A DNA stretch of 64,000 nt from a virus. Taxonomy: Duplodnaviria > Caudoviricetes. Where the stretch lies: the IMG/VR virus record IMGVR_UViG_3300020190_000004. One strand, written 5' to 3'. Under the pieces are notes generated by a model. That model had not been told where the DNA came from. It made no database searches and saw only the letters and a list, made by a program, of their open reading frames with translations. The position numbers and the translations under genes were made by a program. Shown one piece after another: positions 48,238-64,000 of the stretch; position 1 is the first letter of the stretch; every line of letters starts with the position of its first letter.

Positions 48238-49416
48238 TTAGAATAGTTGTGTTTTGACGATTAGTTCCGGCGAAAGCGCTGGTAAGCCAGTTGCTGCAAT
48301 GAATCGGTTAATTGGGTCAATGATACATTTTGCAAATTGTATGTCATAGTTAATAGGTGGAGCAATTTCTATCGGGTAGTTTCCAGGTAAGTAAGCAAAT
48401 ACATTTTCACCACCTTCGTTGTTCTTTGCATAATAGTATCTTACCTTATCTCCGCTTTTAATTAGCTGATACTTCCCTTTCCATTTGCTGTTATTTAATA
48501 AGTAATTGTGGAATCCTGCTGCGCGAGCGTGCATGGGACAGTGGTCATTAATGATAAACCGTTTACGGTCTTCAGATATTGCTTTTTCATAATCATTAAC
48601 ACTGGCCGACATAGAGATATTTTCAATGTTATCAAGCATAAAGGCTTCTTTTTCTCGCTTCAGCAAATCAGCAAATTTTCTCATGTTGAGTTTGTTTCTT
48701 TCTCTGAAGATTATTTTCAAAAGTTCTTTAAGTTTGTTACGAGCAAATAGAGGAGTTGAAGATTGAACAATTTCAACTCCAACCGCTTTGATTTTGTGCA
48801 AAGAATCATAGTATATACCGTCACCTGTGCCGTCTTTCCAAGAAAGATCCAAACAGTACTTTTTCTTTTTTAACAAGATTGCGGAGTAAGAGATAGTTTC
48901 CATTTCCAAAACCTGAATGTTTTCGGTACCAGTTTTCTCAGCATAAGACTTGTAAGCTTTCTCGATGTATTCTTTTATACGATGCTTATAGATTAGTTTA
49001 AGTAACTGGCGAGGGTCGCCTTCCCAATCACAGCCTCTAACCACATCTTCAAAAGTAATGTAACAAGAGTCAGTATCACCGTAGATGGAAACTTCTTTGT
49101 TTATTTTATTAACTTGGTTAAGACCTATGATTTTATGAAGCTCTTTATCACGATGCCAAAATTCAAGGAAGTAACGGTTAAAGATCTGTGCGGCAAATGC
49201 TCTTACCTCTTGTCCTTGCAGCGTAATTGCTTCAGCTACTTTTACATTATACCCGATAAAGTATGGAGAAGCAGTTGCACCGTATACTGAGTTAATGAAA
49301 ATCTTAATTGCTTGTTCCTCATTTTTCTTGAGATTCATAAGAACTTCCAAACGATTTATCTCTGCAATTATTTCTTCCCGACTTGAGGTCTTAGGATCAA
49401 TTCTGCAGTTCTTCAT
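48238..49416 (-). CDS. Family B DNA polymerase, C-terminal half (fingers helix, palm, thumb)
   Basis: Motif B KIFINSVYG and motif C YGDTDS; lacks motif A and the exonuclease domain. Confidence 0.95.
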   Translation of the reverse strand: MKNCRIDPKTSSREEIIAEINRLEVLMNLKKNEEQAIKIFINSVYGATASPYFIGYNVKVAEAITLQGQEVRAFAAQIFNRYFLEFWHRDKELHKIIGLNQVNKINKEVSIYGDTDSCYITFEDVVRGCDWEGDPRQLLKLIYKHRIKEYIEKAYKSYAEKTGTENIQVLEMETISYSAILLKKKKYCLDLSWKDGTGDGIYYDSLHKIKAVGVEIVQSSTPLFARNKLKELLKIIFRERNKLNMRKFADLLKREKEAFMLDNIENISMSASVNDYEKAISEDRKRFIINDHCPMHARAAGFHNYLLNNSKWKGKYQLIKSGDKVRYYYAKNNEGGENVFAYLPGNYPIEIAPPINYDIQFAKCIIDPINRFIAATGLPALSPELIVKTQLF

Positions 49417-50181
49417 CTAATCAGCTTTTCCTATAATCATTTTTGTTTCAGACTCAATAGAGTGGAATATAAGACGGTCTTCATTCATGTATACCATCAA
49501 GTCTTCTTTGTCAAGATATGCAAACTGAGATTTGTAAACAGATACGTTTACTTCGATATCTTTGTTTTCAACCGAAAGCAAGTGCTTGTTAAAGCTTTTT
49601 CCACTTGCAGCAACTTCGCCATCTTTAAGGTTAAATGAAAGCAATTTTTGATCAGAGTCAATACTTGATAGAGCATTTACTTGAGATTGCAATTCTTTTG
49701 TAAGAACGAAGTTTACTTCAGCAGAAGCAACATCACCGATACGATCCATCATTTCATCTGTAATGTGTGTGAATAAACGAAGAGTTGCACATTGAAAGTT
49801 AATTTTAAGTGAGTCATTTTTTAAGATGATATCAGTACCAACCGTTCCGTCTGCTGTTTTTTCTGTAAACAGATTAAAAGTAACTTCAGATCCTTCAAAG
49901 TGAGAGAAAGATTTGATAAGTTTGTCAAGTGAGTAAACACCTAAGATAACCGGAGAAGTTACATCTTCAGGATTTGAGAATACCCGGCTAAGTTCGATTT
50001 TTGAAGACTTGACTACACTTCTTTCAGGCGTGTGAGTTTTTGCTTTTAAGTATTCGCTGTCGATTTCGATTAGAAGACTTCCTGAGATTGATGAGAATCG
50101 CTTAAGAAAGTTAGTTAGTTCCGCTGTTGATGTTAACTTGAGTTCCAGCTTTTGTGCAGTTGTTTTTTCTAATGTTTCCAT
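49417..50181 (-). CDS. gp45: Sliding clamp (T4 gp45-like)
   Basis: 254 aa; FLKRFSSISGSLLI...GVYSLDKLIKSFS pattern; abuts the PolB C-half. Confidence 0.75.
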   Translation of the reverse strand: METLEKTTAQKLELKLTSTAELTNFLKRFSSISGSLLIEIDSEYLKAKTHTPERSVVKSSKIELSRVFSNPEDVTSPVILGVYSLDKLIKSFSHFEGSEVTFNLFTEKTADGTVGTDIILKNDSLKINFQCATLRLFTHITDEMMDRIGDVASAEVNFVLTKELQSQVNALSSIDSDQKLLSFNLKDGEVAASGKSFNKHLLSVENKDIEVNVSVYKSQFAYLDKEDLMVYMNEDRLIFHSIESETKMIIGKAD

Positions 50182-50201
50182 TTTTTGATTGTTTATTTAA
50201 G

Positions 50202-50230
50202 GTTTATATTCAATACTTAATAATTAGTTT
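50202..50230 (-). promoter_or_regulatory. Putative ECF-type promoter AAAC-N18-TATAAA
   Basis: Recurring bipartite motif. Confidence 0.6.
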
Positions 50231-50862
50231 TAGATGATTTGGTCAATTAACCCATACTTTAAGCAAGTCTTTGCATTCCACCAAATGTCTTTTGATAAGA
50301 TGTTATCCATTTCCTTTTCTGGTATTTTAGAGTTTTCTTTGTACCAATCTTTTATGGATTTCATAATGTTTGCGTTGTTGGACATTTCTTCTTTAAGTTC
50401 GGAGTATTTTCCCCACCCACCGTTTCTTAGCTCATGTACAAGCATGAAAGCATTCTTTCGCATTAAGCGTTTAGTTCCTGCAATAGAAGCAAAAGTGGCT
50501 CCTGACGCAGCGCAGCCTTCAACAATGGTTACGATTGGTACTATGGCGCTGATTCTTTGTATCGTATCAGCCATAGCAAAAGCTGAAAAGACTTCTCCGC
50601 CATAAGAATTAATGTGTAACCAAATAGGAGAGGGTTGACCAACTTCATGCATGCTTGAGAATGCTGTCGGCGCAAGACGCATTGATAGGTCTTGTAGTAT
50701 TGCATTTAATTTCAAGGCTGATGCAGGTGTGATAGGCGCATAAAACCAAATATGATCGCCAACTACTTTGATGTCATGATAGTTGTATAAATTTTCGCCG
50801 TCTTCGTCTTCATCACTTCTTTTAACAGGTATTCCTCTGTTATTCATCGGTGTCTTCTTCAT
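50230..50862 (-). CDS. clpP: ClpP-like serine protease
   Basis: LHINSYGGEV, GCAASGAT (catalytic Ser), MLVHE (His), DIWWNAKTCLKYGLIDQI. Confidence 0.85.
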   Translation of the reverse strand: MKKTPMNNRGIPVKRSDEDEDGENLYNYHDIKVVGDHIWFYAPITPASALKLNAILQDLSMRLAPTAFSSMHEVGQPSPIWLHINSYGGEVFSAFAMADTIQRISAIVPIVTIVEGCAASGATFASIAGTKRLMRKNAFMLVHELRNGGWGKYSELKEEMSNNANIMKSIKDWYKENSKIPEKEMDNILSKDIWWNAKTCLKYGLIDQII

Positions 50863-52297
50863 CGTTATTTGTGTTTGAGAATACTTCTATTCCGTCGATT
50901 TCTTCTTCTTCGGAAAATAAGTCAGTTATTGAATTTGTTCTGTTTTGTGTAGCTCTTTTCATAGAAGTATCTTCCATAGATTCGTAAGCCTTAATTGCTT
51001 CTGTGAGTTCAATTCTTTGCTTTTCAATATCAGTGGTAAGTTCTATAATCTTATTATTGGTTCTTGTAAGTTCATCCTCGGAGAGGGATCTCAATAAGAT
51101 AGCATTTAATCGACGCCTGATAGTATCAGCGTTAGGAACACCTTTGGTTATTTTGTTAAGAAATTCATCGATTTCTTTTTCATTCCACATTTCTTTTTTC
51201 TTTTCAATCATGAATGTAAGATATTGTACTTTTCTCTTTAAGAATTCAAGTTCATCTGTGTTGATATTAAAGAAGTACGTTAGTCGCTTAACGCGCAAGT
51301 CTGCCAGCCGGTAACGATAGTCAGTAATGTAGTCTTCAACTCTTTCGTACTCAAGAACAAGACCGTCTTTTACAAACACTGGGGTTTCAGTTACCAGCAT
51401 TTTAACCGACTTGTTAACTGCGTCTAAGAAAGATTCCCACTCAGCAGTGTTGCCTGTAAACTTAAGTAATATGTCAATGTTAGTTGAAGAGTTGTTGGTT
51501 AAGCGAACGCTTGGGTAACTTGTAAGAACGCTATCTAGTTTCTTTAAGAAAGCACCGTATCTCATAAGAGGAGGCAATTCAGTAACTCTGATAGTCTTTT
51601 CTTTTTCGTTCTTTTCAAGTACACCTTCAATTAACCAAGTTTTGTTCATACCCTTAAAGCGAGTAATTTTACCAGTGAAACCTTTGAATTTGGGATGTAC
51701 TTCTTTAGCTTTGCCGTCTAGGAATTTTTGAATATCTTTAAGATCTCGCGGCAAGACTGTAGTTTTGTAACCAACCGCAATACCTACGATTGTGTTTGTA
51801 AGACCTATCGGTAAATCTACCCATAAAGGATTCCAAGATCCTTCTTCATTCTTGTGATTTAAGAAATCACTCTTTCTAATCATCTCAGATATCGCAGGGT
51901 TTATCTTAACAGAGGTATATCTTGCTGCAGATGCTTCCTGATTGATAGGGGTTCCAAAGAACCCGTCGCCTACCAGTAATTGCTCACTATTGCCAAATGG
52001 TCGAGCAAGTTTGTTTATCGCACCAGTTAGAGACTTGTCACCGTGATGGTAACCGTCACTGATACAAGATCCTACGAGTGATATGGTTTTGTTAAAGTTT
52101 GCAGGAGCATTTACCATTATGAAACGCTGTACGTTTGTTAGTCCATCGTAAAAGGATGGGATTCCTCGGTTTTCTAAAACATACAATGCGTAGTTTCGAA
52201 AGTTTGTATCTATTTGCCGGGAAATGTTTAGCGGATATGCTTTCTTCTTCAAGATACTTAGGGTTTTAATTTTGTGTTTTATATACACAAAGGGCAA
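50840..52297 (-). CDS. gp52: Type IIA topoisomerase, cleavage subunit (T4 gp52/GyrA-like); true start possibly TTG at 52252
   Basis: IPSFYDGLTNVQR, YHHGD, catalytic AARYT. Confidence 0.9.
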   Translation of the reverse strand: MPFVYIKHKIKTLSILKKKAYPLNISRQIDTNFRNYALYVLENRGIPSFYDGLTNVQRFIMVNAPANFNKTISLVGSCISDGYHHGDKSLTGAINKLARPFGNSEQLLVGDGFFGTPINQEASAARYTSVKINPAISEMIRKSDFLNHKNEEGSWNPLWVDLPIGLTNTIVGIAVGYKTTVLPRDLKDIQKFLDGKAKEVHPKFKGFTGKITRFKGMNKTWLIEGVLEKNEKEKTIRVTELPPLMRYGAFLKKLDSVLTSYPSVRLTNNSSTNIDILLKFTGNTAEWESFLDAVNKSVKMLVTETPVFVKDGLVLEYERVEDYITDYRYRLADLRVKRLTYFFNINTDELEFLKRKVQYLTFMIEKKKEMWNEKEIDEFLNKITKGVPNADTIRRRLNAILLRSLSEDELTRTNNKIIELTTDIEKQRIELTEAIKAYESMEDTSMKRATQNRTNSITDLFSEEEEIDGIEVFSNTNNDEEDTDE

Positions 52298-52305
52298 CCA
52301 AGTTC
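52276..52305 (-). promoter_or_regulatory. Putative ECF-type promoter GAAC-N18-TATAAA
   Basis: Recurring bipartite motif. Confidence 0.65.
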
Positions 52306-52992
52306 TTATTCGTATCTAATTAGGTCGTACTTCCAAATAAGTTTAACAATGTATCTAGCAATTTCGCTATCAGACGGGAAATGAATACCCATCTTGACCC
52401 TGCTTTCTGCTATTCTTTCAGCAAGGTGTTCTAGTTCACCGCGATAAAGTGGGTATTTTCGGCTGTAGTATTCAGCAAGATTAAAAGATGACGTTGCATG
52501 CCCACTTGGGTAAGATGCGCTATTTGCATCTGTGTGTATAATTGGGAAAAGAGGTAAGCGATATGCTTTACCTAATTGATTAGGTCTAGGTCGATTAATT
52601 TCTTCCTTAAGATAAAAAAGAATAGCTTCAGTTTGTGAATCAACGCCTTTCAGTTCTCCCATAGTTTCTTTTATGCCTTTAGCCGCAAAAAAGTCTAAAA
52701 AGACTTGCTCATAAGATTCTTCTGCCTGTCTTGCAAAAACTATATCTTCTGGCGTTACAGTTTTCATCATTGACATAACGGTCTGTATGTCATTCTGAGT
52801 TATTTCGCTGTAATTGGTAGGTGCTTCTTTTATAATTTTTTCGGCAAGTCCTTTATCAACAAAAAACTTTTTAATATGATTATCTGCATCATTAGCTATT
52901 TTATACAATTCAAGGGTTGGATTGCCAAATTGAATTGCGTTGATTTCATCAGCAGGCAAACTGTCTTTATATTCTTCGTATAGTTTTATCAT
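52306..52992 (-). CDS. PAP2-superfamily phosphatase/haloperoxidase-like protein (likely start MIKLYEEY at 52992)
   Basis: C1 K-X6-RP (KEEINRPRP), C2 PSGH, C3 SRVKMGIHFPSD. Confidence 0.85.
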   Translation of the reverse strand: MIKLYEEYKDSLPADEINAIQFGNPTLELYKIANDADNHIKKFFVDKGLAEKIIKEAPTNYSEITQNDIQTVMSMMKTVTPEDIVFARQAEESYEQVFLDFFAAKGIKETMGELKGVDSQTEAILFYLKEEINRPRPNQLGKAYRLPLFPIIHTDANSASYPSGHATSSFNLAEYYSRKYPLYRGELEHLAERIAESRVKMGIHFPSDSEIARYIVKLIWKYDLIRYE

Positions 52993-54038
52993 AAGTATTT
53001 GTAGCCAAACATATTTGTACAAACATGCATTTCTGTTCTAAAAGTTGGCTCGTCTTTTGTGGTAAGGTACACAAAGTATGTACACAGTTGAATTAGTCTC
53101 TTAACTGCATATTCACTCATGATTCCGTAATAGTCTTCATAAATACATTTATAGATAAGAGGGACCATGTTTGAGAACAATCCCGGTGTAGAATTTGACT
53201 CAATGAAGAAGTGTTTGCCGTTTCTATCAATAGCAATGTCAAGCCCGGCGATGTTGAGAGTTGGGTTGATGTCGAAAATAACTTTTGCTATATGATAACA
53301 TTCTTTAACGCTTAAACCTTTAACATCTTGTGGTTCTACTTGCGTCCAAGAAAAGTTAGATTTTTCGCGGTTATCGAGTTTGTCTTCAGTCATTCCAGCT
53401 TCGTTTACTCTTAATGACTTGGCTTTATCATTAAGCGGGTCTCTACGAAAAACTGAAAGCATTCTGATACCCGTGTTCTTTCCTCTAAAGAAAACTATTC
53501 TAAACTCCTGATCAATTTGAATTTGCTCTTGGTAAATGTCAAAACCTTTAACCAATTTGTTTAATCCTGTTTTTGTAGAAACTTTTTCTACACCACGAGA
53601 TTGATATGTGTTTGATGCTTTAGCAATAATGGGAAACTTAAGTTCTTTCTTTGCTTCAGCTGGTGTAAAAACTGTTTTAGGCAGCCAAGGAAAATCAAGT
53701 TTCTTAAGTATTTTAAGAGTGTCAAGTTTACTAACTACAATCCCGTGTGGGGCGTTGTAAACTTTATCAGCTGTAAGCAAGTCATGACCTATAGTATCGC
53801 TTATTCCGTACTTTTCGATTAATGACTGTTTGTCCCACAGTAATACAGGAAGCGTTTGTTCAATAACATCACTTAAGTATGTATCAGGGCTGTCACAAAA
53901 TTGGAAGATCTTTGCGATATTCTTTTGAACATTTTGCTTTTGCTCCATGTCCATCGTGGAAAACATAACAACTTTACCAAACTCAACAGGTTCGGTGGCA
54001 GATGCTTTAACAAAGAGATCAAAAGGATCAACTCTCAT
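52989..54038 (-). CDS. RimK-like ATP-grasp ligase
   Basis: FPIIAKA..TYQSRGVEKV, YQEQI....EFRI, AGLDIAIDRNGKHFFIESNSTPG. Confidence 0.8.
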   Translation of the reverse strand: MRVDPFDLFVKASATEPVEFGKVVMFSTMDMEQKQNVQKNIAKIFQFCDSPDTYLSDVIEQTLPVLLWDKQSLIEKYGISDTIGHDLLTADKVYNAPHGIVVSKLDTLKILKKLDFPWLPKTVFTPAEAKKELKFPIIAKASNTYQSRGVEKVSTKTGLNKLVKGFDIYQEQIQIDQEFRIVFFRGKNTGIRMLSVFRRDPLNDKAKSLRVNEAGMTEDKLDNREKSNFSWTQVEPQDVKGLSVKECYHIAKVIFDINPTLNIAGLDIAIDRNGKHFFIESNSTPGLFSNMVPLIYKCIYEDYYGIMSEYAVKRLIQLCTYFVYLTTKDEPTFRTEMHVCTNMFGYKYL

Positions 54039-54050
54039 TTAGGAAGTTTC

Positions 54051-54410
54051 TTATTTAAGAGTAAGAAGGTACTTAAGTTTCATCAAGTCAGCCCTCGCTT
54101 CATCACGGATGTTTGCAATTTCGCTATCTTGTTCTGCAATGAACGCACCTGTCAAGAAATCATCCATAGTCTCAATAAAAGCTTCTATTTTAAGATTATC
54201 ATAGTCGGCAAAAGTAATTTGCTTGACCCCGCCAAACTTAGGACGTTGGTATTTACCGCTATAAACTTCTATTAATCTATCAAATCTTTCATTTAAGTCT
54301 TCGTAAATTAACCCAAAGGCGTTATGTTCTGCGTAAGATTCAGTTTGCCAGTGAAGAATTCTTAATTGACCCTGAATCTGTATTATGTTTGCTAACAATT
54401 CTTTTTCCAT
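54051..54410 (-). CDS. Ferritin/Dps-like four-helix protein (DUF5856-like)
   Basis: LHWQTESYAEHNAF..IYEDL....DRLIEVYSG; C-terminal NIRDE....L.KLKYLLTLK. Confidence 0.75.
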   Translation of the reverse strand: MEKELLANIIQIQGQLRILHWQTESYAEHNAFGLIYEDLNERFDRLIEVYSGKYQRPKFGGVKQITFADYDNLKIEAFIETMDDFLTGAFIAEQDSEIANIRDEARADLMKLKYLLTLK

Positions 54411-54430
54411 TTGTATGTTTATTGTTTTTG

Positions 54431-54438
54431 TATTTATC
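54431..54438 (-). promoter_or_regulatory. Late-promoter variant GATAAATA
   Basis: One-mismatch variant of GATATATA. Confidence 0.45.
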
Positions 54439-54464
54439 TTTTAGCGAATTATGTGTTTCATCTT

Positions 54465-54857
54465 TTACTTGTTATTTCGCGCCCAATCAATAAAAGCTTG
54501 TATTTTTTCTATGCAATACTTAGCTAACCAGCGACGATATTCAGCGCCTGTTCTAAACTGCTCAACACCATCTACTTGTGATTGCTTCCAAGCAGCTGAT
54601 TTGTCTTGTCCAAAAAGAGGCAATTCTCTTGCATCTTTCAAAAGAAGCTGTAATTCTTGGTCGTTTTTATCGTCAAGTGCTTTATTAAACTTGTTAAGAA
54701 GATTTTCATAAATCTCAATTCTTATAGTCTCACCTAACCAATTTTCAGCTTCTGGATCAGCATACACTTTAACTTTACCAGCTTCAAGTTCAATGCTGAT
54801 TGGAGTAGTTAAATCTCTACCACCTTCATTAAGCCAAGATTCGTAGGATTTGACCAT
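54465..54857 (-). CDS. Putative capsid-internal protein (CTS-like leader MVKSYESWLNE)
   Basis: Leader resembles the T4 capsid-targeting sequence ending in L-x-E. Confidence 0.65.
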   Translation of the reverse strand: MVKSYESWLNEGGRDLTTPISIELEAGKVKVYADPEAENWLGETIRIEIYENLLNKFNKALDDKNDQELQLLLKDARELPLFGQDKSAAWKQSQVDGVEQFRTGAEYRRWLAKYCIEKIQAFIDWARNNK

Positions 54858-55397
54858 CTACTTCTTGGTATTTTCTAGGTATTTCTTAAACTCTGTGCAA
54901 GCTTTCATAACTTCACCTTGGTCGCTGAGGTCGCTGATTACATAGTCAAGTGAACCTTCGTCATCGCTGGCAAAAACACCGCCAATTACAAACTCTGAAC
55001 CGTTGTAAGCAAGTTCACTGTAGTCTAACATAGTTAAAAGGTTGTATTCAGTATCCGCAACCGGAATATACAACTCATTAGCAAAGTTAGAGCTGTCAAT
55101 AACAGTGTTATCCACGTCAAGCTCTATACCGCATCTTTTGAATGCATCAGCAACATACTTAAGAAAAGGTGGTACGTCTTTCTTAATAATTCCAGTAAGT
55201 GGAACAGGTTTAGCCTTCTTCATTGCCTCAACGGCAACAGCTTCTACTTCTTTCTCTTCCATTTCATCGGAGTTTTTGCCGGTTCCGTCTAACATATACG
55301 AGCCTACTTCCCATAAGTCAGCGTCTACGCCCTCATTGTAGTTAATACCTTCACTGATGTTTGAGAAGTATTCGTTAATGCTTTTTATGTGTTTCAT
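54858..55397 (-). CDS. Putative capsid-internal protein (leader MKHIKSINEYFSNISE)
   Basis: Acidic protein with a CTS-like leader. Confidence 0.65.
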   Translation of the reverse strand: MKHIKSINEYFSNISEGINYNEGVDADLWEVGSYMLDGTGKNSDEMEEKEVEAVAVEAMKKAKPVPLTGIIKKDVPPFLKYVADAFKRCGIELDVDNTVIDSSNFANELYIPVADTEYNLLTMLDYSELAYNGSEFVIGGVFASDDEGSLDYVISDLSDQGEVMKACTEFKKYLENTKK

Positions 55398-55398
55398 C

Positions 55399-55911
55399 TT
55401 AGATGATTATGTTTTTAAGATTAAACATTTGAGCGCTATCCCAGTTTCCACGAGGATTGTCCATTACCTGATAACTGCAGCCGTACATAACGGATACTTT
55501 TAAGTATAATTTTTTTCCAGCAGAATCTTCTACTTCAAATATCTTAAAAGCGTTAGCGCTATCACCAAAACCGACAACTGTAAAAGTTTCTGGCCGGGTT
55601 TGGAACGTGCCTTCAAATTTAGCACCGTCAGATATTTTGTTAATGAGTTTTTTGCCATTCATCTCCATTTGCATAGGGGTGATGACTCCTTCATTTAACA
55701 AAGACTCATTTGAAGACTTGTACATATTTTCAATAAAAGTCTCAAATTCTTTTCCAGACTTTTTGTCCTTTACGGTCATTTTGTCTCCACTAATCTTCTT
55801 TACCTCAAAGTTGAATCCCTGTACCGCATTACCTACAGTATCACCAACTTTAATGTCTTGGTTGGCTTTGCCTTCGTTCAAGAAGCTTTCAAATGTGTGT
55901 ATGTGTTTCAT
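55399..55911 (-). CDS. Putative capsid-internal polyprotein (leader MKHIHTFESFLNE; internal LLNE site)
   Basis: Two small beta modules, the first KOW/SH3-like, separated by SNESLLNE. Confidence 0.65.
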   Translation of the reverse strand: MKHIHTFESFLNEGKANQDIKVGDTVGNAVQGFNFEVKKISGDKMTVKDKKSGKEFETFIENMYKSSNESLLNEGVITPMQMEMNGKKLINKISDGAKFEGTFQTRPETFTVVGFGDSANAFKIFEVEDSAGKKLYLKVSVMYGCSYQVMDNPRGNWDSAQMFNLKNIII

Positions 55912-56478: not shown

Positions 56479-56483
56479 AGGGA

Positions 56484-58286
56484 TTAGATCCTCCCTTCTA
56501 ACCAACGTTTTCTCTTGTCAGCAGAATTTCCAAAGGCAATTTCCATGTATTTGCCAGCTGAACGATCTATGCGAATCTTAAACATCTTGCGTTCTGCCAT
56601 AACCATTTCCCAGTCTTGTATACTCAATGAACCTAACCCTTTAAGATAACGAACATTTTTGTAAGGAGTTCCGCTTTTCTCAAACTCGCCCCACTCATGA
56701 AGAGAATAGAAGTATTGTCTTTTGTTCTTAACTTCAGCAGAAACAAGCGGAGTAATTAAGATATGAAGTTTGCCAGTTTCAATCACTTGTGGAAACCACT
56801 TATAGAACAAGTTAATCACCAACGAAGCGATGTGACCTATTCCATCAGGGTCCCAATCGGTAGAGATGACAACGTTTGAGAATGCACATTTACTTCCGTC
56901 TCGTGGTTCAAGGTTAAGAATGTTCATCAAGTCAATGATTTCATTATTAGAACTCAAGTCACTTAAGTTTCTTGCGTTCTTAATCTTGCCCTTTAACGAA
57001 TACACTGCATCAATCCGCGGATCTCGTTTCTGTAAGATTGAACCCATAGCTGAAGAACCTTCAACTATGAAAAGAGATCCTTTGCTTTGTGAAGGCGGAA
57101 AGTACTTATCGCTTATGCGTTTGCTTGCAGCTTTCTTCTTGTTCTTGATGTTTTTAAGATCTTGTGTTTGAGTTCTTTCATCAATCAGTTTACGAACAGT
57201 TTCGTAAAACTTAGTTTTCTTGAGAGACTGATTAATCTTTTTGTTAAAGTCAGTCAGTAAGTGCTGTATTTCCCAACGACCTGCCGCGTACTTGGTTTTG
57301 TTTTGGTCAGCAAAACGAACCAGCTTAGGTGGAAAGTTAAGAATAAGAAGAGTCTCGTAAAAGTGATGAGCTAATGTATAGTCAAAGATGTCATTCACCC
57401 AGTCAGTAAAAATCTTTTGGTGAATACCCGTACATATAGCGCCGTTTACGAATGAAGCAGATGTTGCATTTTCGTATCGATTCCATATCACAAACATTCC
57501 CATCTTGCCCTTAAACACAATCGCGTCTTCTGGCAAGAATGACTGGTTAAGTTCAAGTTTTGTGTTGTCAAAGAAGAACTCAATCTCCAAGTTACTGATA
57601 ACAGGGTCTTGATTCTTTAAGAACTCCCGAAAGATGAACATGGTGTGTAAGTATTCTTTATCCCAAGTACATCCTTTGAAAATGTCAGTGCGTGGAATGT
57701 ATCTTACAGTAGTACCCGTTTGTGAATTGCGTTTTTTCTTGTCAGTGGTTTCTCGTTTTTTCTCAAAGCGGTTCCACTGAATGTTGTACTCTATTTCATT
57801 GTTAATTGTGGTAATAACAAATTCTTCCGAAAGCATGTTCACAAGAGCAGCACCCACTCCATTAGTACCAATTAAAGAATCATTTGAGTTTTCATTATAG
57901 AAGTTTGAACCAGCTCTTAACATTGACATTGCTGTCTCAACGTTGGATTGCCCTGTCTTTGTGTTTGCCTTTTCAGCGTTAATGAATCCGCCACCAGTGT
58001 CGGTTACTTCTACTTCATTATTTTTTGAATTAATCTTAACGATGATTTTAGGCATTACGCCCTTCATTCTCTTTGCTTCATCAAAAGCATTGTCAACGAT
58101 TTCATTAAACATCTTATAGAATCCTACAGATATGATCTTGTTCTTTGCAACAAGTTTTCCATTCTCCACGATCTGTACGCTTTCTTCAGATTTCTCAACC
58201 GAACCAATATACATGGTTGGTCTGTGTGTCACATGTTCAAAATCTGATAGTGCTACAATTTCTTTGTTAGATTTTTGTTTTGTCAT
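56484..58286 (-). CDS. Type IIA topoisomerase, ATPase/TOPRIM subunit (T4 gp39+60 / GyrB-like)
   Basis: EHVTHRPTMYIGS, EIVDNAFD, GTNGVGA, VEGSSA, LKGKIKN, TDWDPDGIGHI, YLKGLGS. Confidence 0.95.
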   Translation of the reverse strand: MTKQKSNKEIVALSDFEHVTHRPTMYIGSVEKSEESVQIVENGKLVAKNKIISVGFYKMFNEIVDNAFDEAKRMKGVMPKIIVKINSKNNEVEVTDTGGGFINAEKANTKTGQSNVETAMSMLRAGSNFYNENSNDSLIGTNGVGAALVNMLSEEFVITTINNEIEYNIQWNRFEKKRETTDKKKRNSQTGTTVRYIPRTDIFKGCTWDKEYLHTMFIFREFLKNQDPVISNLEIEFFFDNTKLELNQSFLPEDAIVFKGKMGMFVIWNRYENATSASFVNGAICTGIHQKIFTDWVNDIFDYTLAHHFYETLLILNFPPKLVRFADQNKTKYAAGRWEIQHLLTDFNKKINQSLKKTKFYETVRKLIDERTQTQDLKNIKNKKKAASKRISDKYFPPSQSKGSLFIVEGSSAMGSILQKRDPRIDAVYSLKGKIKNARNLSDLSSNNEIIDLMNILNLEPRDGSKCAFSNVVISTDWDPDGIGHIASLVINLFYKWFPQVIETGKLHILITPLVSAEVKNKRQYFYSLHEWGEFEKSGTPYKNVRYLKGLGSLSIQDWEMVMAERKMFKIRIDRSAGKYMEIAFGNSADKRKRWLEGRI

Positions 58287-58324
58287 TATTTTCTTTTAGA
58301 TGTCTTTAAGTTTTAATTGTATAG

Positions 58325-58351
58325 ATTATATTACAGTAAAGATTAAAGTTC
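58325..58351 (-). promoter_or_regulatory. Putative ECF-type promoter GAAC-N17-TATAAT
   Basis: Recurring bipartite motif. Confidence 0.6.
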
Positions 58352-58379
58352 TTAGAATGTCATTAGCTTAACTATTCTT

Positions 58380-60206
58380 TTATATTTCGCTGTATAAAAG
58401 AACTTTAACACCTTTGGATTGAGCAGTTCTCATTTTAGAACTTGTTGATCCTAAATCATCGGTAAACAATACTTTAGCTTCATTTAAACTTGTGTGATGA
58501 TAGCCTTTGGACTTAGCGTAAATTAGGAATTCTTCTTTGGTCTTGAATCCAGCTGACTTCGGTGAACCTGTGAATTCACAGCCTATCGAGTCAACAGCAA
58601 TCCTTTCAGGAAGAGTTATCTTGATGTAAGGGGACAAGCTCTCAACCATCATGTTATATTCTTGGCGGCGTTTACCTCCTAATTCAAATCCCGCGATTAC
58701 ATCTTTCTGTAAACCGGAGAAACTGTAATCAATACCCGCGAGGTAGTTGCCAATTTGCTTTGCTGTAGTCCAACCCATACCGTCAACTCCCATAAGCATA
58801 ACAAGATCTCGCGGTTTGAGTTCAGAACATTTCTCAATTTCTTTGAATAGGTTATCTAGTGTTTTTCCTGCCTTAAAGAATCCTGAACCTATAAGCGTTT
58901 CTTTGCTCATCTTGGTTGGGTTTAGCAAGTCAGCAGGATTCTTAATACCTGCTTTCCAGATTAGCTTTGTCATAGCACCACCAACACCGTCAAGACCTAA
59001 AACATTAACACCGTTATGAAACTTATACCAGGATTTGATTTCACAATTCTCATTTTCACACATTAGGTGGATTCCTTTTACTACAAGTTTGCTTCCGCAC
59101 TTACAAGATTCTGGGTGTTGAAAACCTGCGGTATCTCCAGCAACTACTACTCGAGTAATCTGCGGTATGATATCACCAGATTTTGCGATAGCAACCACAG
59201 CACCAGGAACGGCGCCTTTTTCTTTAAGATAGCCTAAGTTAAATAGAGCAGCGCGAGAAACCGTAGAACCATCAAGATCAACAGGTTCCATTACAGCTAC
59301 TGGAGTAACCTCTCCAGTCTTTCCGTATTGCCAAGATATGCTCTTGATTTTTGTGATTGCTTCTTTAGGAGGAAACTTGATGGCAACCGCCCAGTTAGGA
59401 TCGTGAGAGTTTTCACCCCAAGCAGATCGCAAGCCTTCAGGCGCTTTGATTACAAAACCGTCAAGTTGGTAATCCGAGTTTTTGCGATACTCAACCATAT
59501 CATCATATGCTGATTGAAAGTTTTCAATTCCGCAGTAAAAAGTATGAGCAGTATGTTTGAACCCTGAAATTCTCGGGGCAATATAGCGAATCTCTTCATC
59601 AATATGTTGCCTTACCTCAAGAGGGATAAAGTCAAGATCCGCAAGTATTGACGGCGAATTGTCATCGCGATTAAGAACACCAGCAACATAGTTACGAGGA
59701 TTCTTAAAAGTTGCGTATTTCTCATTGAATGTAGATACTTTAATTACCACTTCACCGCGTACTTCAACGATTCCTTTAAGATCTATAGTCTCCGGTATGT
59801 TATGTTTTACCTTGTCAGTAATATCGCGCCCTTTAGTTCCGTTACCGCGAGACAGTACTTGTAGAAGTTTACCGTCTTGATAGATTGCGTTACCTGCATT
59901 TCCATCATATTTAGGTGTTACCTCAAAGGAAGTAGCGCCAAACTTGTTCATCCAGTTTGTAGCAGATTCTACTGGTGCTGCACCTGATAAACTTGCTTGA
60001 TACTTAGCAAGAGATAACATTGGTGATGGGTGAGAATACTTTGCTTTGCGATCCTCAGCACCCACGATATGTGGAGCATCAGAACCCATACTGATTAGTT
60101 CTTGTTCAAGAGAGTCAAATTCATCATCAGATAAAACAGATTCACCAGAATAGTATGCCTCTTTGGCTTGAAAATAAAGTTGTTCTAACTCGAAGCGATT
60201 ACTCAT
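58380..60206 (-). CDS. ligA: NAD-dependent DNA ligase with C-terminal BRCT-like domain
   Basis: HPSPMLSL, TPKYDG, SRGNG, EVRGE, NPRNYVAG, DGFVIK, AIKFPP, TGEVTPVA, KSGDIIPQI. Confidence 0.95.
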   Translation of the reverse strand: MSNRFELEQLYFQAKEAYYSGESVLSDDEFDSLEQELISMGSDAPHIVGAEDRKAKYSHPSPMLSLAKYQASLSGAAPVESATNWMNKFGATSFEVTPKYDGNAGNAIYQDGKLLQVLSRGNGTKGRDITDKVKHNIPETIDLKGIVEVRGEVVIKVSTFNEKYATFKNPRNYVAGVLNRDDNSPSILADLDFIPLEVRQHIDEEIRYIAPRISGFKHTAHTFYCGIENFQSAYDDMVEYRKNSDYQLDGFVIKAPEGLRSAWGENSHDPNWAVAIKFPPKEAITKIKSISWQYGKTGEVTPVAVMEPVDLDGSTVSRAALFNLGYLKEKGAVPGAVVAIAKSGDIIPQITRVVVAGDTAGFQHPESCKCGSKLVVKGIHLMCENENCEIKSWYKFHNGVNVLGLDGVGGAMTKLIWKAGIKNPADLLNPTKMSKETLIGSGFFKAGKTLDNLFKEIEKCSELKPRDLVMLMGVDGMGWTTAKQIGNYLAGIDYSFSGLQKDVIAGFELGGKRRQEYNMMVESLSPYIKITLPERIAVDSIGCEFTGSPKSAGFKTKEEFLIYAKSKGYHHTSLNEAKVLFTDDLGSTSSKMRTAQSKGVKVLLYSEI

Positions 60207-60220
60207 TGATTTTTAATTAT

Positions 60221-60291
60221 AGAATAAAATTAACCAAAATAATCATATAATGCAAACTTTTAAGCAACTTTTTTCTAAAAGTTATTAACAA
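60221..60291 (-). promoter_or_regulatory. Host-type (Bacteroidota sigma-A-like) early promoter element
   Basis: TGTTAATAAC...TTTG-N20-TAATTTTA-TTCT. Confidence 0.7.
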
Positions 60292-60733
60292 TTCTTTCTA
60301 GGTTTTCTGATCGCGTAAGTATTCGCCACGTCATATCATACAGCTGCTCTACAGTCGCAACAAATTCTATCCCGGGTTTATTCCACTCGTGTGGAGCAAT
60401 AAGAGACAAGAAAAGAGTGTTATCATCACGTGTATACAGATGATATACTTCACCGGCATCTGGTTTAAAGTTAAACTTTGCACGATACACCAAGAGGGAG
60501 ACTAATCTTCTTTCTTCTAGTTCTGTGTATTGCTTTTTAAGAAGTTCAACTTGCTCCAAAATTTGTTTCTTTTGCATCTCAACTTGCTCGTTCATGGCGG
60601 CAGCTGACTTGCTCAAGATAACACCCATTTCAGTAGGTCTGAATGCAGGTGCACTTATGTTATGCCCATAAGGAAGTAAGCCGGGATATACCGGCATCAT
60701 GTTCTCGTCCTTTTGCGTAGGATCTTTTTCCAT
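60275..60733 (-). CDS. DUF2452 family protein (likely start MEKDP at 60733)
   Basis: LLPYGHNISAPAF...QILEQVELLKKQ...AKFNFKP..GEVYHLY......FLSLIAPHEW. Confidence 0.75.
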   Translation of the reverse strand: MEKDPTQKDENMMPVYPGLLPYGHNISAPAFRPTEMGVILSKSAAAMNEQVEMQKKQILEQVELLKKQYTELEERRLVSLLVYRAKFNFKPDAGEVYHLYTRDDNTLFLSLIAPHEWNKPGIEFVATVEQLYDMTWRILTRSENLERIVNNF

Positions 60734-60734
60734 C

Positions 60735-60819
60735 TTATTTAATTTGATGGTCATCTACAGCCATCGCATGTTTGCTTTTCATTATACCAGCAATTTCCTC
60801 AAAAGAATAAATTTGCCAT
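60735..60819 (-). pseudogene. Possible internally deleted gene remnant (metallophosphoesterase-like termini)
   Basis: ATG-MANLFF-stop, then out-of-frame YSFEEIAGIMKSKHAMAVDDHQIK-stop abutting the next ATG. Confidence 0.3.
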
Positions 60820-60822
60820 GTA

Positions 60823-60859
60823 GTTTATATACAACAAAGGCTCTGGAGTTCCCAGAGCC
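60823..60859 (-). promoter_or_regulatory. Terminator-like hairpin (GGCTCTGG/CCAGAGCC) whose loop carries the GAAC of an ECF-type promoter
   Basis: 8-bp stem 60839-60859; GAAC-N18-TATAAA at 60823-60851. Confidence 0.6.
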
Positions 60860-60882
60860 ATGTTGCGTTTGTGTTGTTTGAA

Positions 60883-61536
60883 TTATTCTAGAACTTTTTT
60901 AAGGACGGCACATTTTTCATATTCCTCGGTTTCAAGAAAGTATGTTATCATTTGATTTACGATAGTTTCACGATCTTGTTGAGATTCAACTCTTACAGTA
61001 ACACTTTCTTCATCGATGATTATATTCTTCTTGAAAGAATCAGGATCTTTGCTAATAAAGTTATATACCTGTCTATAGAAATCCTTTATGTTATCATCAA
61101 AATTTTCATCATCAGGTTTGTATACCCATTCTTCTTTAGGAAGATAGCGTTCAAATGTTTCAAGAGGGTCTCTTGTATTACCAAAAACTCGGTTATACAT
61201 GAGTGCATTCTGTAAAGAAATTAAAACTCCGGTGTCTATTTCATCAGATGTGAATTTATAGTCATCGGGGTCTGTTACTTCCCAGTCAGAAGGGAGTTGC
61301 TGCGAAGGCACTACCAACACTGTTCCGTACATAGCAACCTGAAAGAAAAAAGAAGCTATGGTATTTAGCGGTTCACCTTTTTTCTTTGCTTTTTCGTCGT
61401 ACATAACCCAAACAGGTCCGATCTTAAAAGGTTCAATGAAACCGTCCACTGTATCATTAAGATCCTGTAGGTTAAACTTTCTACCTTCAGGTCTCATGAT
61501 TTTTACTACATTGTCTAAACCGATTTTTAGTGCCAT
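60883..61536 (-). CDS. DUF3846-like protein with C-terminal UVR-like motif
   Basis: LQDLNDTVDGFIE...YDE......PLNTIAS......YGTVLVV; ends YFLETEEYEKCAVLK. Confidence 0.65.
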   Translation of the reverse strand: MALKIGLDNVVKIMRPEGRKFNLQDLNDTVDGFIEPFKIGPVWVMYDEKAKKKGEPLNTIASFFFQVAMYGTVLVVPSQQLPSDWEVTDPDDYKFTSDEIDTGVLISLQNALMYNRVFGNTRDPLETFERYLPKEEWVYKPDDENFDDNIKDFYRQVYNFISKDPDSFKKNIIIDEESVTVRVESQQDRETIVNQMITYFLETEEYEKCAVLKKVLE

Positions 61537-61542
61537 ACTTTA

Positions 61543-63399
61543 TTAAACTATTTCACAAGCTCCACCAGCACACGCTGCTTCACTTTTAAGATCAGTAGCG
61601 TCCTCTAATTCTATCACGTTCTTTAGATTTATATCTTTAATGTGATAAGACAATTCATCAAACTGTTCTTTTGTGATATCTTCAAACGGTGCTTGTGTAT
61701 AAGTACCACCGTCATAAGGTAAAACTGAAAGTCCGTTATAGCAGTGTTTGTTTTTCCACATCCAGTCTCCTATAGTATCCCATTCATCAGACTTAACGCT
61801 AATCGTGGCAGATATATTATGCGTATTGTTACCGGTCCTGTGACCAGGTTTTATCCAGTCAAGGTAAACACGTTTAACACGCTCAAGCAAGTCCATGGAA
61901 GATTCTGTTCTCAAGATTGCTCCTTCAGGTGCTTTAATTGGAATTTCAATTACTGCGGTAGTTGTAGGAGAGAAAAACTCATCTTTAACAAGTTCTGGGT
62001 GATTAATAGCCAAGAACGAATACATTGCTTCATTTTTTCCTACTCGCATACGACGAACGTAATAGTCGTTATGCCAAGCATGAATTCCTGAAGAACAGCC
62101 TAGAACAAGAGATGAAGTGCCAGACGGTTTAACGGTTGTAGTACGAGCTGCTCTGTTAATTCCGATAGTAGAAGCAATTCTAGCGTTTTCTTCTTTAACT
62201 GCTTCAGCGGCAGCTTTCATATCAAGATTAAGAACGCGGCCAGAACCAATTCCTGTCATACCCACACCAATAAGTGCATCTTTCTCAGTGTTACGTTTCC
62301 ATACTGGACGCAAGTAGTGGAAGTCAGTATAACCTGCTTGAAGAGTTCCAACGAAAGCAGCAGCTTTACATCTTGCCTCGTATTCTTCTTGAGAATCTAC
62401 ATCATCTACATTAACTTCTGTTAAATTACAGAATTGAAATGGACGAAGAGCAATTTCACAGCAAGGATTAGTGCCCCAGTCTTTATCGTTATTAAAGTAA
62501 ATTCCCGGTTCGCCTGAACCACTTGCTTCAATCTTTTTCCATAAATCAACAAAATCTTCTTTCTCAATTTTGTTGCGAAGAATCACAGCGCTGTTGTTTG
62601 CTCTTCCACGTTGTGGGTTAAGTTCCCACCAGTTTCCAAACTTACAAGTACGCATATCTTCATCATCAAACGAGAATAAAGAGATAAGAGCAGCTCTGCG
62701 AATACCACCAGCAAGAACTGCATCGGCAATGTGACAAACGATGTCATGAACTTCAATCGGAGATAGCATCTCGCCGTCTTCTTTTCTTTCAAGAATTAGT
62801 TCTATGTTCATAAGACATCTCTTTAAAGGCTCAGGACCCGGCGCCTTACCACCAGAGGTAACAAGTCTTGCACCTTTGTGGCGTATATCTGAAAAGTCAA
62901 ATGCTGGTTTATATCCTCCATAAAAATATGATTTCATCAAGTACTTAACTGCATCAGCCCATCCTTCAATAGAATCACTGATTAAATATCTGCGAGATTT
63001 TCGCGGTTTGCTAATCTCTGGTAATTTTTCGATGTGGTGACATTGTACACTATAACCAACACCCGTCCCTCCTAATAGAAGAAACATAACTTCTCCAAAA
63101 GCTCTCCAATCATCGATTGGTAAATAAGCACAGTTGTAAACTCTGTTTGGTGAAATTTCAATAGGCTTACCTCCAAATTGAAGGGATCTCATTGAAGGAA
63201 GAATCTTTTTGTTTTTTACGAAGTTTTCGTAAACGTTTTCAATCTCATCTGCGAGCTGTGGGTATTTTTTCTTGTGCATATCTTTGTTGCGGTCAACGAT
63301 CTCTGCCCACGATTCTCGTCTTTCTTTCCCCGGTAAATACTTAGCGTACTTAGTGAATACCGTTATTTCACTAAGGACCTCAATCGACTTGTCTTTCAT
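61543..63399 (-). CDS. nrdJ: Class II (adenosylcobalamin-dependent) ribonucleoside-triphosphate reductase
   Basis: LPSMRSLQFGG, VYNCAY, GGIRRAA, TNPCCEI, FCNLTE, VKPSGTSS, terminal ACAGGACEI. Confidence 0.95.
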   Translation of the reverse strand: MKDKSIEVLSEITVFTKYAKYLPGKERRESWAEIVDRNKDMHKKKYPQLADEIENVYENFVKNKKILPSMRSLQFGGKPIEISPNRVYNCAYLPIDDWRAFGEVMFLLLGGTGVGYSVQCHHIEKLPEISKPRKSRRYLISDSIEGWADAVKYLMKSYFYGGYKPAFDFSDIRHKGARLVTSGGKAPGPEPLKRCLMNIELILERKEDGEMLSPIEVHDIVCHIADAVLAGGIRRAALISLFSFDDEDMRTCKFGNWWELNPQRGRANNSAVILRNKIEKEDFVDLWKKIEASGSGEPGIYFNNDKDWGTNPCCEIALRPFQFCNLTEVNVDDVDSQEEYEARCKAAAFVGTLQAGYTDFHYLRPVWKRNTEKDALIGVGMTGIGSGRVLNLDMKAAAEAVKEENARIASTIGINRAARTTTVKPSGTSSLVLGCSSGIHAWHNDYYVRRMRVGKNEAMYSFLAINHPELVKDEFFSPTTTAVIEIPIKAPEGAILRTESSMDLLERVKRVYLDWIKPGHRTGNNTHNISATISVKSDEWDTIGDWMWKNKHCYNGLSVLPYDGGTYTQAPFEDITKEQFDELSYHIKDINLKNVIELEDATDLKSEAACAGGACEIV

Positions 63400-63405
63400 T
63401 GCTTT

Positions 63406-63723
63406 TTAATCTTTTTTGGGTGTTTGTTTGTAATACTTTAGAATTAGTCCACTGAGAGGTTTCACGTGCTTTCTCCATTCTTCGTTAAGAATAAGTTCTA
63501 ACATAATCATTGGCCGGAACGTTTCTGAATCAATCCAGGTGTGGATCCTAAAGTCTTCATAATTGCCTGCGTATTTCTTTAAATAATCAGCAATTTCCCT
63601 CAGGCGGTCTGGGTTGTCCTGTAAGTCTTCCATTGTGAAGTGAAAGTGCTTATAAATTGACGGCCGGTCAACGCTTTGCTGTAAGCGCTCAATAATTTGA
63701 TTGTGTATATTCATGGGTTTCAT
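63406..63723 (-). CDS. Hypothetical protein
   Basis: 105-aa ORF coupled (ATGA) to the PolB N-half. Confidence 0.55.
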   Translation of the reverse strand: MKPMNIHNQIIERLQQSVDRPSIYKHFHFTMEDLQDNPDRLREIADYLKKYAGNYEDFRIHTWIDSETFRPMIMLELILNEEWRKHVKPLSGLILKYYKQTPKKD

Positions 63724-64000
63724 TGTATATATTTTTTAAGTTGCTCAATTTCTTCTTCTATTTGCATGTAGTTTTTCTTGGCAACTTTGCGTTTTCCGTA
63801 GTATTCTGACAGAATTGTTCTAAAAGCACTGTCGGTATCTTTTTGAAAAACTGCGCCAGACGAGCACACAATTTCAGTGTTAAGATTTACCTCGGATTCT
63901 TTGGTAACATTTTTAACATATGATTCAGGTGATATGTTCCACTGTCTCATGATAGACGGATATAGTGATGCGAAGTCAAAAGAAACCACCCATTCATAAA
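63720..64000 (-). CDS. Family B DNA polymerase, N-terminal half (3' end only; gene starts beyond the window)
   Basis: YEWVVSFDFASLYPSIMRQWNISPE (motif A), then fingers helix ILSEYYGKRKVAKK...QLKKYIQ-stop. Confidence 0.9.
   Translation of the reverse strand, partial: YEWVVSFDFASLYPSIMRQWNISPESYVKNVTKESEVNLNTEIVCSSGAVFQKDTDSAFRTILSEYYGKRKVAKKNYMQIEEEIEQLKKYIQ

Follow-up and report, generated by a model that had tools for sequence, protein, structure and literature searches.

A T4-gp43-type family-B DNA polymerase divided at the finger tip between two distant genes in an uncultured giant lake phage and its relatives

Finger-tip-split polymerases have been described as gp43A/gp43B in Aeromonas phages 25, 31, 44RR and 65 and in Acinetobacter phage 133 (Petrov et al. 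2006, 2010, as cited in PMC3061061). According to the summary given there, the two cistrons are adjacent in these T4-related phages, lying 2 bp to 3 kb apart (PMC3061061). The polymerase of phage PhiKZ is separately encoded as DNAP-N (gp82) and DNAP-C (gp50), which were seen by cryo-EM as a stable 1:1 complex (bioRxiv 2026, PMC13648687). In Methanothermobacter thermautotrophicus, the genes of a split PolB are located 85 kb apart and give an active two-subunit enzyme (Kelman et al. 1999, as cited in PMC3061061). An engineered Pfu polymerase cut at the finger tip reassembles from its fragments with full activity and wild-type kinetics (PMC3061061). A different kind of arrangement is that of fractured genes, which combine split inteins with a free-standing homing endonuclease (Dassa et al. 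2009, PMC2677866).

Here we report that the family-B DNA polymerase of an uncultured T4-related giant lake phage is made up of two genes, both on the minus strand and separated by 14.3 kb, in a stretch of 64,000 nt (the window, meaning all of the DNA that was analysed). The N-half (458 aa) carries the exonuclease motifs and motif A, and the C-half (392 aa) carries motifs B, C and KKxY. The family-B motifs A (DxxSLYPS), B (KxxxNSxYG), C (YGDTDS) and KKxY are all present, divided over two ORFs rather than placed on the single continuous polypeptide usual for the T4 gp43 type. The combined size is 850 aa, compared with about 900 aa in gp43. The PF00136 profile covers positions 59-146 in the N-half piece and 151-451 in the C-half piece, so both pieces abut within the profile. 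In the alignment with RB69 gp43 the N-half extends up to about residue 491 and the C-half spans residues 554-887; RB69 and T4 gp43 are the closest solved relatives of both halves. Alignments with 44RR gp43A and gp43B and with RB69 place the break in the loop joining the two fingers helices. Sequence comparison confirms that the halves together correspond to one T4-gp43-like PolB cut at the finger tip. Our main reading, to which we assign a probability of about 85%, is that the replicative gp43-type PolB of this phage consists of two independently translated, unspliced halves joined non-covalently into an obligate heterodimer.

The likeness to gp43A/gp43B extends to the polymerase family, the break site, the presence of two separately translated ORFs and the lack of an intein. 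The end of gp43A and the start of gp43B in Aeromonas phage 44RR2.8t (44RR) fall within about 10 residues of the corresponding ends in the window phage, and gp43B of 44RR has 391 aa against 392 aa for the C-half here. In contrast, the gap is 49 bp in 44RR and 14.3 kb here, with 16 genes including that of the clamp; the halves of related megaphages are up to more than 200 kb apart and on opposite strands, and the split is the majority state in a very large uncultured clade. An initial reading of the window from its letters alone (the sequence-only reading) had pointed to gp43A/B as a finger-tip split with neighbouring cistrons, which stands; widely separated PolB halves as such are not unprecedented, being found in PhiKZ and Methanothermobacter. 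PhiKZ likewise has a phage family-B polymerase in two subunits with the active-site aspartates on different chains, but it belongs to a divergent polymerase clade and its break interrupts a large insertion of the palm instead of the finger tip. It also uses a monomeric clamp-derived Rhc subunit, whereas the clamp of the window phage is a standard two-domain one of the PCNA/gp45-like type, accompanied by a gp44-type loader. The Methanothermobacter enzyme is archaeal, and its break falls within the palm, some 83 residues beyond the finger-tip site. Split Pfu shares the cut site, but is an artificial, bicistronic, archaeal enzyme.

The 3' end of the N-half gene, comprising the last 92 codons and the TGA stop, occupies 63720..64000 (minus strand; translation, PF00136). 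Its reading frame at 63720-63998 runs through DFASLYPS to KRKVAKKNYMQIEEEIEQLKKYIQ and then stops, so that motif A is found in a gene ending at 63720, as first read, together with the first fingers helix; the gene extends past the window edge. Retrieval of the full N-half beyond 64000, proposed from the window alone, was achieved with an independent contig (L001:8304-9680), which encodes the complete protein of 458 aa with PF03104 and PF00136. The exonuclease motifs ExoI (DxE), ExoII (NxxxFD) and ExoIII (YxxxD) are present, with D98-I99-E100, N188...D193 and Y284-N285...D288 invariant in the N-half alignment (A2); DIE, NxxxxD, YNxxD and DFASLYP are the motifs invariant among homologues.

The C-half gene, at 48238..49416 on the minus strand (translation, PF00136, RB69 gp43 alignment and alignment A3), is indeed a separate gene that starts at 49416 and carries motifs B and C, and the 14.3 kb distance holds when measured from the N-half stop to the C-half start. 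The protein begins with MKNCRIDPKTSSREEIIAEINRLEV and comprises the second fingers helix, motif B (KIFINSVYG), motif C (YGDTDS), KKKKY, the thumb and a C-terminal ...TQLF. Invariant among its homologues are KxxxNSxYG, YGDTD and KKKY (K184-K185-K186-Y187; alignment A3). The KTQLF ending singled out earlier is present; ...TQLF is conserved and the final LF is invariant in all 28 of 28 homologues. The position and conservation of this tail suggest that it is clamp-binding-like. A trimeric clamp ring binding the polymerase tail would fit the invariant LF and the gp44-type loader encoded in the window.

Could the two halves be joined into one polypeptide by trans-spliced RNA or a split intein? Split inteins do occur at motif C in relatives of the same gene, namely those of L017, Lak-A2 and LR756500, and the phage group is rich in mobile elements. 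In L017, C1 is fused to an N-intein, followed by a free endonuclease gene and then by a C-intein fused to C2, and the same C-intein block occurs at motif C in Lak-A2 and LR756500. These fractured genes are readily recognisable and serve as an internal control: nothing of the kind is seen at the finger-tip break or in the window, where motif C of the C-half is uninterrupted and the finger-tip ends are without intein blocks. Fused relatives align residue for residue over the break site, straight to a continuous finger tip, and neither half has extra residues at its end. The N-half does not end in an N-intein, nor does the C-half open with a C-intein, whose closing HN would precede Ser, Thr or Cys. 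There is no non-coding space at either end of the break, as the N-half TGA stop and the start codon of the next gene share an ATGA and the clamp TAG stop directly abuts the C-half ATG; no spare sequence is left for an intein or intron. Rfam at gathering thresholds gave no match over the whole window, hence no intron RNA core was recognised. In megaphages, moreover, hundreds of kb separate the halves, which are encoded on opposite strands. We consider such joining very improbable, and the absence of intein and intron signatures noted at the outset is borne out by the direct alignment to fused relatives, the abutting genes and the Rfam search. A conserved KYxxIDP at the start of the C-half was considered as an intein fossil and rejected, because fused relatives have an alignable, partly similar stretch inside their continuous finger tip.

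As the source is a metagenomic assembly, the separation of the halves might be an artefact of a chimeric or rearranged contig, and misassembly had been named at the outset as something that would undo the finding. The order of N-half, 105-aa gene and RNR gene is the same in independent JGI and Logan contigs, of which four cover the N-half in full or at its 3' end and another two start within the block that holds the RNR gene. The C-half protein is present on 12 contigs. The phage occurs in the lake samples JGI 3300021091, 3300021092 and 3300021424, and public collections include a 238-kb contig. Twelve contigs of related viruses have the same split, as do six published phage genomes, each with its own gap. 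Near-identical DNA was absent from the phage collection. With independent assemblies repeating the arrangement, we regard an artefact as extremely improbable. The split is real and conserved, not an error, given that the same cut is common to hundreds of relatives including Lak megaphages.

A search at E<=1e-10 recovered 448 clusters of C-half relatives, and among the best 120 of these nearly all are about 392 aa long; for the N-half there were 1365 clusters, with nearly all of the best 120 at 455-466 aa. Stand-alone C-halves account for 95 of the 150 top representatives at 50% identity. The arrangement is therefore not peculiar to one phage, since hundreds of protein clusters have the same gene boundaries, and judging from these comparisons most members of a large clade, Lak and the 460-735 kb megaphages among them, have the split polymerase. 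Every N-half among the relatives stops after the first helix and nearly every C-half has a Met before the second; in LR756501, an exception, the C-half frame is open further upstream. The distance between the halves is far from constant. It is 12.0, 16.0 and 19.3 kb in IMG/VR contigs of close relatives, about 10 kb in LR756500, 130-280 kb in LR756502 and LR756504, and about 220 kb, on opposite strands, in the complete Lak-A2 genome. Across Lak-A2 and the 460-735 kb megaphages, gaps range from 10 kb to more than 200 kb, often with the halves on opposite strands. Synteny in relatives, named at the outset as a check, shows both halves kept apart and the order of clamp gene and C-half conserved.

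The halves might also be decaying or redundant remnants, with replication carried out by another phage or host polymerase. A second, minimal split Pol III alpha has been described in jumbo phages of the same group (Iyer et al., PMC7824862). Against this, the catalytic motifs are all invariant in dozens of homologues down to about 50% identity, and both halves are kept at full length in hundreds of clusters. An intact PolB elsewhere, which the sequence-only reading saw as grounds for refutation, was not found: there is no further PolB-like piece in the 64,000-nt window, and a search with PF00136 in an 84%-complete relative, Lak-A2 and three megaphages matched only the known pieces. The window moreover encodes a full T4-type replisome that would need a PolB, with a clamp, gp44-type loader, DnaB-type helicase, UvsX and gp46/47. 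Redundant remnants are in our judgement quite improbable.

The 14.3 kb between the halves (49417..63719) contain 16 genes of 100 aa or more, all on the same minus strand, as established from the ORF list, Pfam and PHROG; the sequence-only reading had put the number at about 17. In order, they encode a 105-aa protein without assigned function, a class II RNR-like protein, DUF3846 and DUF2452 proteins, an NAD-dependent DNA ligase, a GyrB-like topoisomerase II subunit, four further proteins without assignment, a PHROG 858 protein, an ATP-grasp protein, a PAP2 protein, a topoisomerase IV A-like subunit, a ClpP-like protease and the sliding clamp.

The clamp gene (49417..50181, minus strand) encodes a protein of 254 aa that had no match in Pfam and PHROG searches. 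Its AlphaFold2 model (pLDDT 91.3, pTM 0.85) has the two-domain fold of PCNA/gp45 sliding clamps and matches PCNAs in Foldseek with probability 1.00 and TM 0.6-0.7. According to the model, the protein folds as a PCNA/gp45-type clamp. The direct coupling of the C-half to a sliding clamp, suggested from the start, is upheld by the TAG-ATG junction and by this predicted fold. On the other side of the C-half is the gene of a UvsX/RecA-like recombinase (46303..47565, minus strand; Pfam RecA), a conserved downstream neighbour. The synteny of clamp, PolB-C and UvsX recurs in L007-L019, and phage 44RR has the T4-type gene order; on this comparative basis the block probably marks the ancestral gene-43 locus. 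We also considered a clamp/C-half fusion through read-through of TAG as Q, as in Lak phages. This was rejected: TAG is an ordinary stop in the window, where 42 genes end with TAA, 13 with TGA and 11 with TAG and 90% is coding under table 11, and the clamp genes of relatives end with a TAA overlapping the ATG. Scanning for the T4 late promoter TATAAATA gave three matches in the window, none of them in 47-64 kb and not above chance, and sigma-70 and terminator scans of the window were at chance level.

Multimer modelling of the two halves, put forward as a check, predicted a large and confident interface. The complex of the N-half and C-half scored an ipSAE of 0.87, compared with 0.00 for the best of three controls; the mark applied is reached by 58 of 80 solved complexes and 2 of 110 mismatched pairs, a calibration that is rough here, with own alignments used. 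Three model runs agreed in at least 95% of contacts, and the partner pLDDT was 88 in all of them (floor: at least 87). The most confident predicted contacts are between palm strands, connecting N-half residues 369-373 with C-half residues 119-122 and 172-176; the palm sheet is rebuilt in the model, and the fingers helix hairpin forms an additional part of the predicted interface. Reassembly through antiparallel helices, as originally envisaged, is consistent with the modelled hairpin, but the helices would not be the sole interface, the palm strands being the more confident part. As intact PolB structures have already been solved, the high score may reflect memory of, or likeness to, those structures.

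Under the main reading, motif A and the first palm strands that carry it would come from the N-half, along with the N-terminal domain, the 3'-5' exonuclease and the first of the two fingers helices. The C-half would add the second fingers helix with motif B, the remaining palm with motif C and KKxY, the thumb and the clamp-binding-like tail. The break would lie in a surface loop at the finger tip, and the two polypeptides, each translated on its own and left unspliced, would associate by completing a shared palm beta-sheet and by pairing the fingers helices as a normal antiparallel hairpin, giving an obligate heterodimeric polymerase that travels with the clamp of the phage. Direct observation covers the gene structure and how it is conserved, and shows that splicing elements would have no room; that the halves assemble and are active is suggested by the structure model and by split enzymes with activity, namely those of T4 relatives, Pfu and PhiKZ. 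A point that counts against the proposal is that no mechanism ensuring equal amounts of the halves is apparent, their genes not being coupled to each other. The halves could act apart or with other partners, the N-half for example as a free proofreading exonuclease and the C-half delivered with the clamp, which would suit their different gene neighbourhoods and the coupling of the C-half to the clamp gene instead of the N-half. The two catalytic aspartates are, however, on different chains, that of motif A belonging to the N-half and that of motif C to the C-half, so neither half could polymerise alone, and the model predicts a large, confident shared-palm interface. Separate action is in our opinion improbable.

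The halves are automatically annotated as "DNA polymerase elongation subunit (family B)" or "hypothetical", and a comparative survey of jumbo phages described the group with a classic family-B polymerase (PMC7824862). The finger-tip split itself is known from gp43A/B; for its wide separation and clade-wide occurrence we found no description in the searchable literature, subscription papers aside, and the same holds for any finger-tip split in Lak or huge phages. If a two-subunit replicase with genes placed anywhere in the genome is confirmed for Lak-type and other giant phages, their polymerase phylogenies and completeness checks must join the halves. The finger tip would then be a site that tolerates a permanent break in a replicative polymerase over long evolutionary time. 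A broader proposal holds that the finger-tip split is the ancestral, selected state in the clade of Lak phages, megaphages and freshwater relatives, with an obligate heterodimer whose halves are separately regulated and exchangeable, and with at least six re-fusions, and adds that an open finger tip might alter nucleotide selectivity, as happens in split Pfu; we hold this to be doubtful. Fused forms are few and scattered among the split ones, and would provide a natural series in which to follow how the gene of an essential enzyme splits and fuses. In the nearest fused relative, the whole polymerase gene follows the clamp gene, at the place where the window has the C-half alone. In the main reading, the C-half occupies the ancestral place of gene 43, with the clamp gene on one side and uvsX on the other, and the part coding for the N-half is found 14.3 kb upstream in the lineage of the window and anywhere in the genome in megaphages.

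All genes at 46-64 kb of the window are carried by the minus strand, according to the ORF list, and two of them encode parts of a family-B DNA polymerase (PolB) of the T4 gp43 type. The 3' end of the first gene, the N-half (63720-63998, minus strand), runs off the window; it encodes motif A (DFASLYPS) and then a long helix ending ...EEEIEQLKKYIQ, and its TGA stop shares ATGA with the ATG of the next gene. The second gene, the C-half (48238-49416, minus strand), is an ORF of 392 aa that begins MKNCRIDPKTSSREEIIAEINRLEV, and its translation continues through motif B (KIFINSVYG), motif C (YGDTDS), KKKKY and the thumb region to the end ...KTQLF. The Pfam profile PF00136 is matched at its positions 59-146 by the N-half piece and at 151-451 by the C-half, which are therefore consecutive parts of one domain; no further PolB piece was found within the 64-kb window. 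The complete N-half (458 aa, PF03104 and PF00136) was recovered from an independent JGI contig, where a dUTPase gene precedes it. Aligned with RB69 gp43, whose fingers we take to be residues 469-572, the N-half extends to about residue 491 with 12 more residues following, and the C-half begins at residue 554 with 31 residues ahead of that point. This places the break at the finger tip.

The split is a genuine feature and widely conserved. Independent JGI and Logan contigs share the order N-half, 105-aa gene, RNR gene: in four of them the N-half is complete or represented by its 3' end, and two more begin within the RNR gene block; the exact C-half protein is present on 12 contigs, the longest of 238 kb. 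Database matches to the C-half form 448 protein clusters (90% identity, E<=1e-10), the best 120 of them nearly all about 392 aa long, and the best 120 of 1365 clusters matching the N-half are nearly all of 455-466 aa. Among the top 150 of 2507 hits (50%-identity representatives), stand-alone C-halves, defined by a Met start within 110 residues of motif B, account for 95, and full-length fused enzymes for 10. The exonuclease and polymerase motifs are all invariant in the alignments of both halves, as is the C-terminal LF of the C-half (28 of 28 sequences).

Three related IMG/VR contigs carry both halves on the same strand with gaps of 12.0, 16.0 and 19.3 kb. The closest records in the phage collection searched are those of Lak megaphages and of uncultured phages with genomes of 460-735 kb, and the halves are separate in all of them: about 10 kb apart on the same strand in LR756500, and on opposite strands in the complete circular Lak-A2 (about 220 kb apart), LR756502 (about 130 kb), LR756504 (about 280 kb) and LR756501 (far apart). 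In each of these genomes the N-half stops soon after the first fingers helix, and in nearly all the C-half has its Met start just ahead of the second; in LR756501 the open frame extends further upstream, and the start is less certain. The C-half there (L028:2300-3910, LR756501.1) is a 572-aa open frame with an additional insert separating motifs B and C and an extension that looks TPR-like, and may be an N-terminally extended form. Searches with PF00136 found no additional PolB in an 84%-complete relative, Lak-A2 and three megaphages. Relatives of both halves from a 425-kb contig (P0242/P0338), and P0060, are publicly labelled as 'Candidatus Pacearchaeota archaeon' or 'Bacteroidota bacterium' MAG proteins; their sources are probably giant-phage contigs binned into cellular MAGs.

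Separate genes could still yield one chain if the halves were spliced. The two halves add up to 850 aa, too few to accommodate an intein, an Rfam search of the window gave no match, and neighbouring genes abut or overlap both break-side gene ends, the N-half stop and the C-half start. Fused relatives such as P0366, the nearest (877 aa; identity to the split form 44% in the N part, 52% in the C part), are continuous through the finger tip and align to both split ends with zero residues left over. Splicing of the halves is therefore very unlikely.

Inteins do occur in this gene in relatives. At L017:8035-10837 (IMGVR_UViG_3300031951_000268) the C-half is a fractured gene comprising C1 with an N-intein, a free 366-aa endonuclease-like ORF, and a C-intein with C2; the C-intein ends ...ILVHN, followed by Ser, and the cut falls exactly at motif C. 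The same C-intein block is also present in Lak-A2 and LR756500, so the polymerase in these three genomes is encoded by three genes. Other relatives have a contiguous mini-intein, e.g. P0189 (566 aa, Pfam Intein_splicing). The intein-bearing relatives serve as an internal control: splicing elements in the PolB gene, where present, are obvious. No element of the motif-C intein kind was found at the finger tip.

We infer that the two products assemble into an active, clamp-binding polymerase. In a complex model the halves are arranged as within intact PolB, with an ipSAE of 0.87 where the best of three controls reached 0.00, a result that may reflect likeness to the intact PolB structures already solved and is not necessarily independent evidence. 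Of 80 solved complexes, 58 attained the ipSAE mark, and of 110 mismatched pairs, 2 did so, counts that are only rough owing to author-made alignments. At least 95% of contacts agree among three runs, and partner pLDDT is 88 in all three (tool floor >=87). The sequence-only reading had proposed that the halves rejoin through an antiparallel coiled coil. The helices do pair in the model, N-half helix 428-457 packing against C-half residues 1-73 as an ordinary fingers hairpin, but they form only part of the interface, the most confident contacts being between palm strands (N-half 369-373 with C-half 119-122 and 172-176). Pfu polymerase split at the finger tip retains full activity, and T4 relatives naturally have finger-tip-split gp43 variants (PMC3061061); DNAP-N and DNAP-C of PhiKZ form a stable 1:1 complex (PMC13648687). 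These cases support the two-subunit reading.

The 14.3-kb gap contains 16 ORFs (ORF list, Pfam, PHROG): in order, a 105-aa unknown, a class II RNR-like protein, DUF3846, DUF2452, an NAD-dependent ligase, a GyrB-like subunit, four unknowns, a PHROG 858 protein, an ATP-grasp protein, PAP2, a topoisomerase IV A-like subunit, a ClpP-like protease and a 254-aa protein. The last has no match in Pfam or PHROG; its model is a two-domain clamp (pLDDT 91.3, 36-sequence alignment) resembling PCNAs in Foldseek (probability 1.00, TM 0.6-0.7). The C-half ATG comes immediately after the TAG stop of this clamp gene. The ClpP-like gene (50230-50862, minus strand), between the topoisomerase A-like and clamp genes, overlaps the former by 23 nt and is missing from that position in some relatives (L014, L015, L017).

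All close relatives share one block of genes, topoisomerase A, (ClpP), clamp, PolB-C, UvsX, and LR756500 also keeps its clamp, PolB-C, UvsX part. The block retains the T4 order 45 ... 43 ... uvsX, the 45 ... 43 part by comparison with phage gene order. The fused P0366 gene follows GyrB-like, topoisomerase A and clamp genes in that order, with the clamp gene immediately before it, and that clamp is 37% identical to the clamp in the window. Judging by where the fused gene lies, the C-half is at the ancestral gene-43 locus, and it is the part coding for the N-half that is located elsewhere.

Nine fused forms are scattered on a quick tree without outgroup, built from the C-half between motif B and the C-terminus and thus excluding the finger tip itself. 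At least eight state changes are needed, six of them forced by well-supported branches, and a constraint tree grouping the fused forms was rejected (AU p = 0.0016); as the tree covers the C-half only, such changes could also be simulated by phages swapping halves. The scatter could reflect repeated fission or repeated re-fusion.

At L016:8715-10000 and L013:3220-4505, 39 codons from the 5' end of the C-half are duplicated (72% identical) directly after the clamp gene; a 373-aa reverse-strand ORF comes next, and the full C-half gene starts only beyond it. The arrangement looks like a mobile-gene insertion with partial target duplication. Downstream of the C-half in L013, L014 and L016 (e.g. L016:11445-15857), uvsX is broken into three (residues 1-68, 68-208, 207-420); the intervening inserts measure 0.7 to 1.7 kb and may be introns, inteins or endonuclease genes. 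In the window uvsX is intact.

Finger-tip-split gp43 and two-gene PolBs are already known as a kind. In Aeromonas phage 44RR, the gp43A/gp43B break site equals ours within about 10 residues, and gp43B has 391 aa. Unlike in the known splits, the halves here are dispersed (14 kb apart in the window, and at any genome place on either strand in megaphages), the clamp gene sits between them abutting the C-half, and the split is the majority state over a very large uncultured clade including Lak. In a comparative study of jumbo phages, the group's enzyme is termed a classic family-B polymerase, and the only split reported is that of a Pol III alpha (PMC7824862); a survey of PolB diversity makes no mention of the split (PMC7544198), and we found no published report of this PolB split in the searchable, openly readable literature.

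Elsewhere the window encodes portal gp20, large terminase, gp44-type clamp loader, gp46/47, DnaB-type helicase and UvsX, all core functions of the T4 type; the phage is a member of the T4 superfamily. A 2073-aa ORF (11206-17427, minus strand) is without a Pfam match. Two collagen-repeat proteins (3-2417 and 3475-4419, minus strand), one of which matches the BclA C-terminal domain weakly and below the cut-off, are probably fibres.
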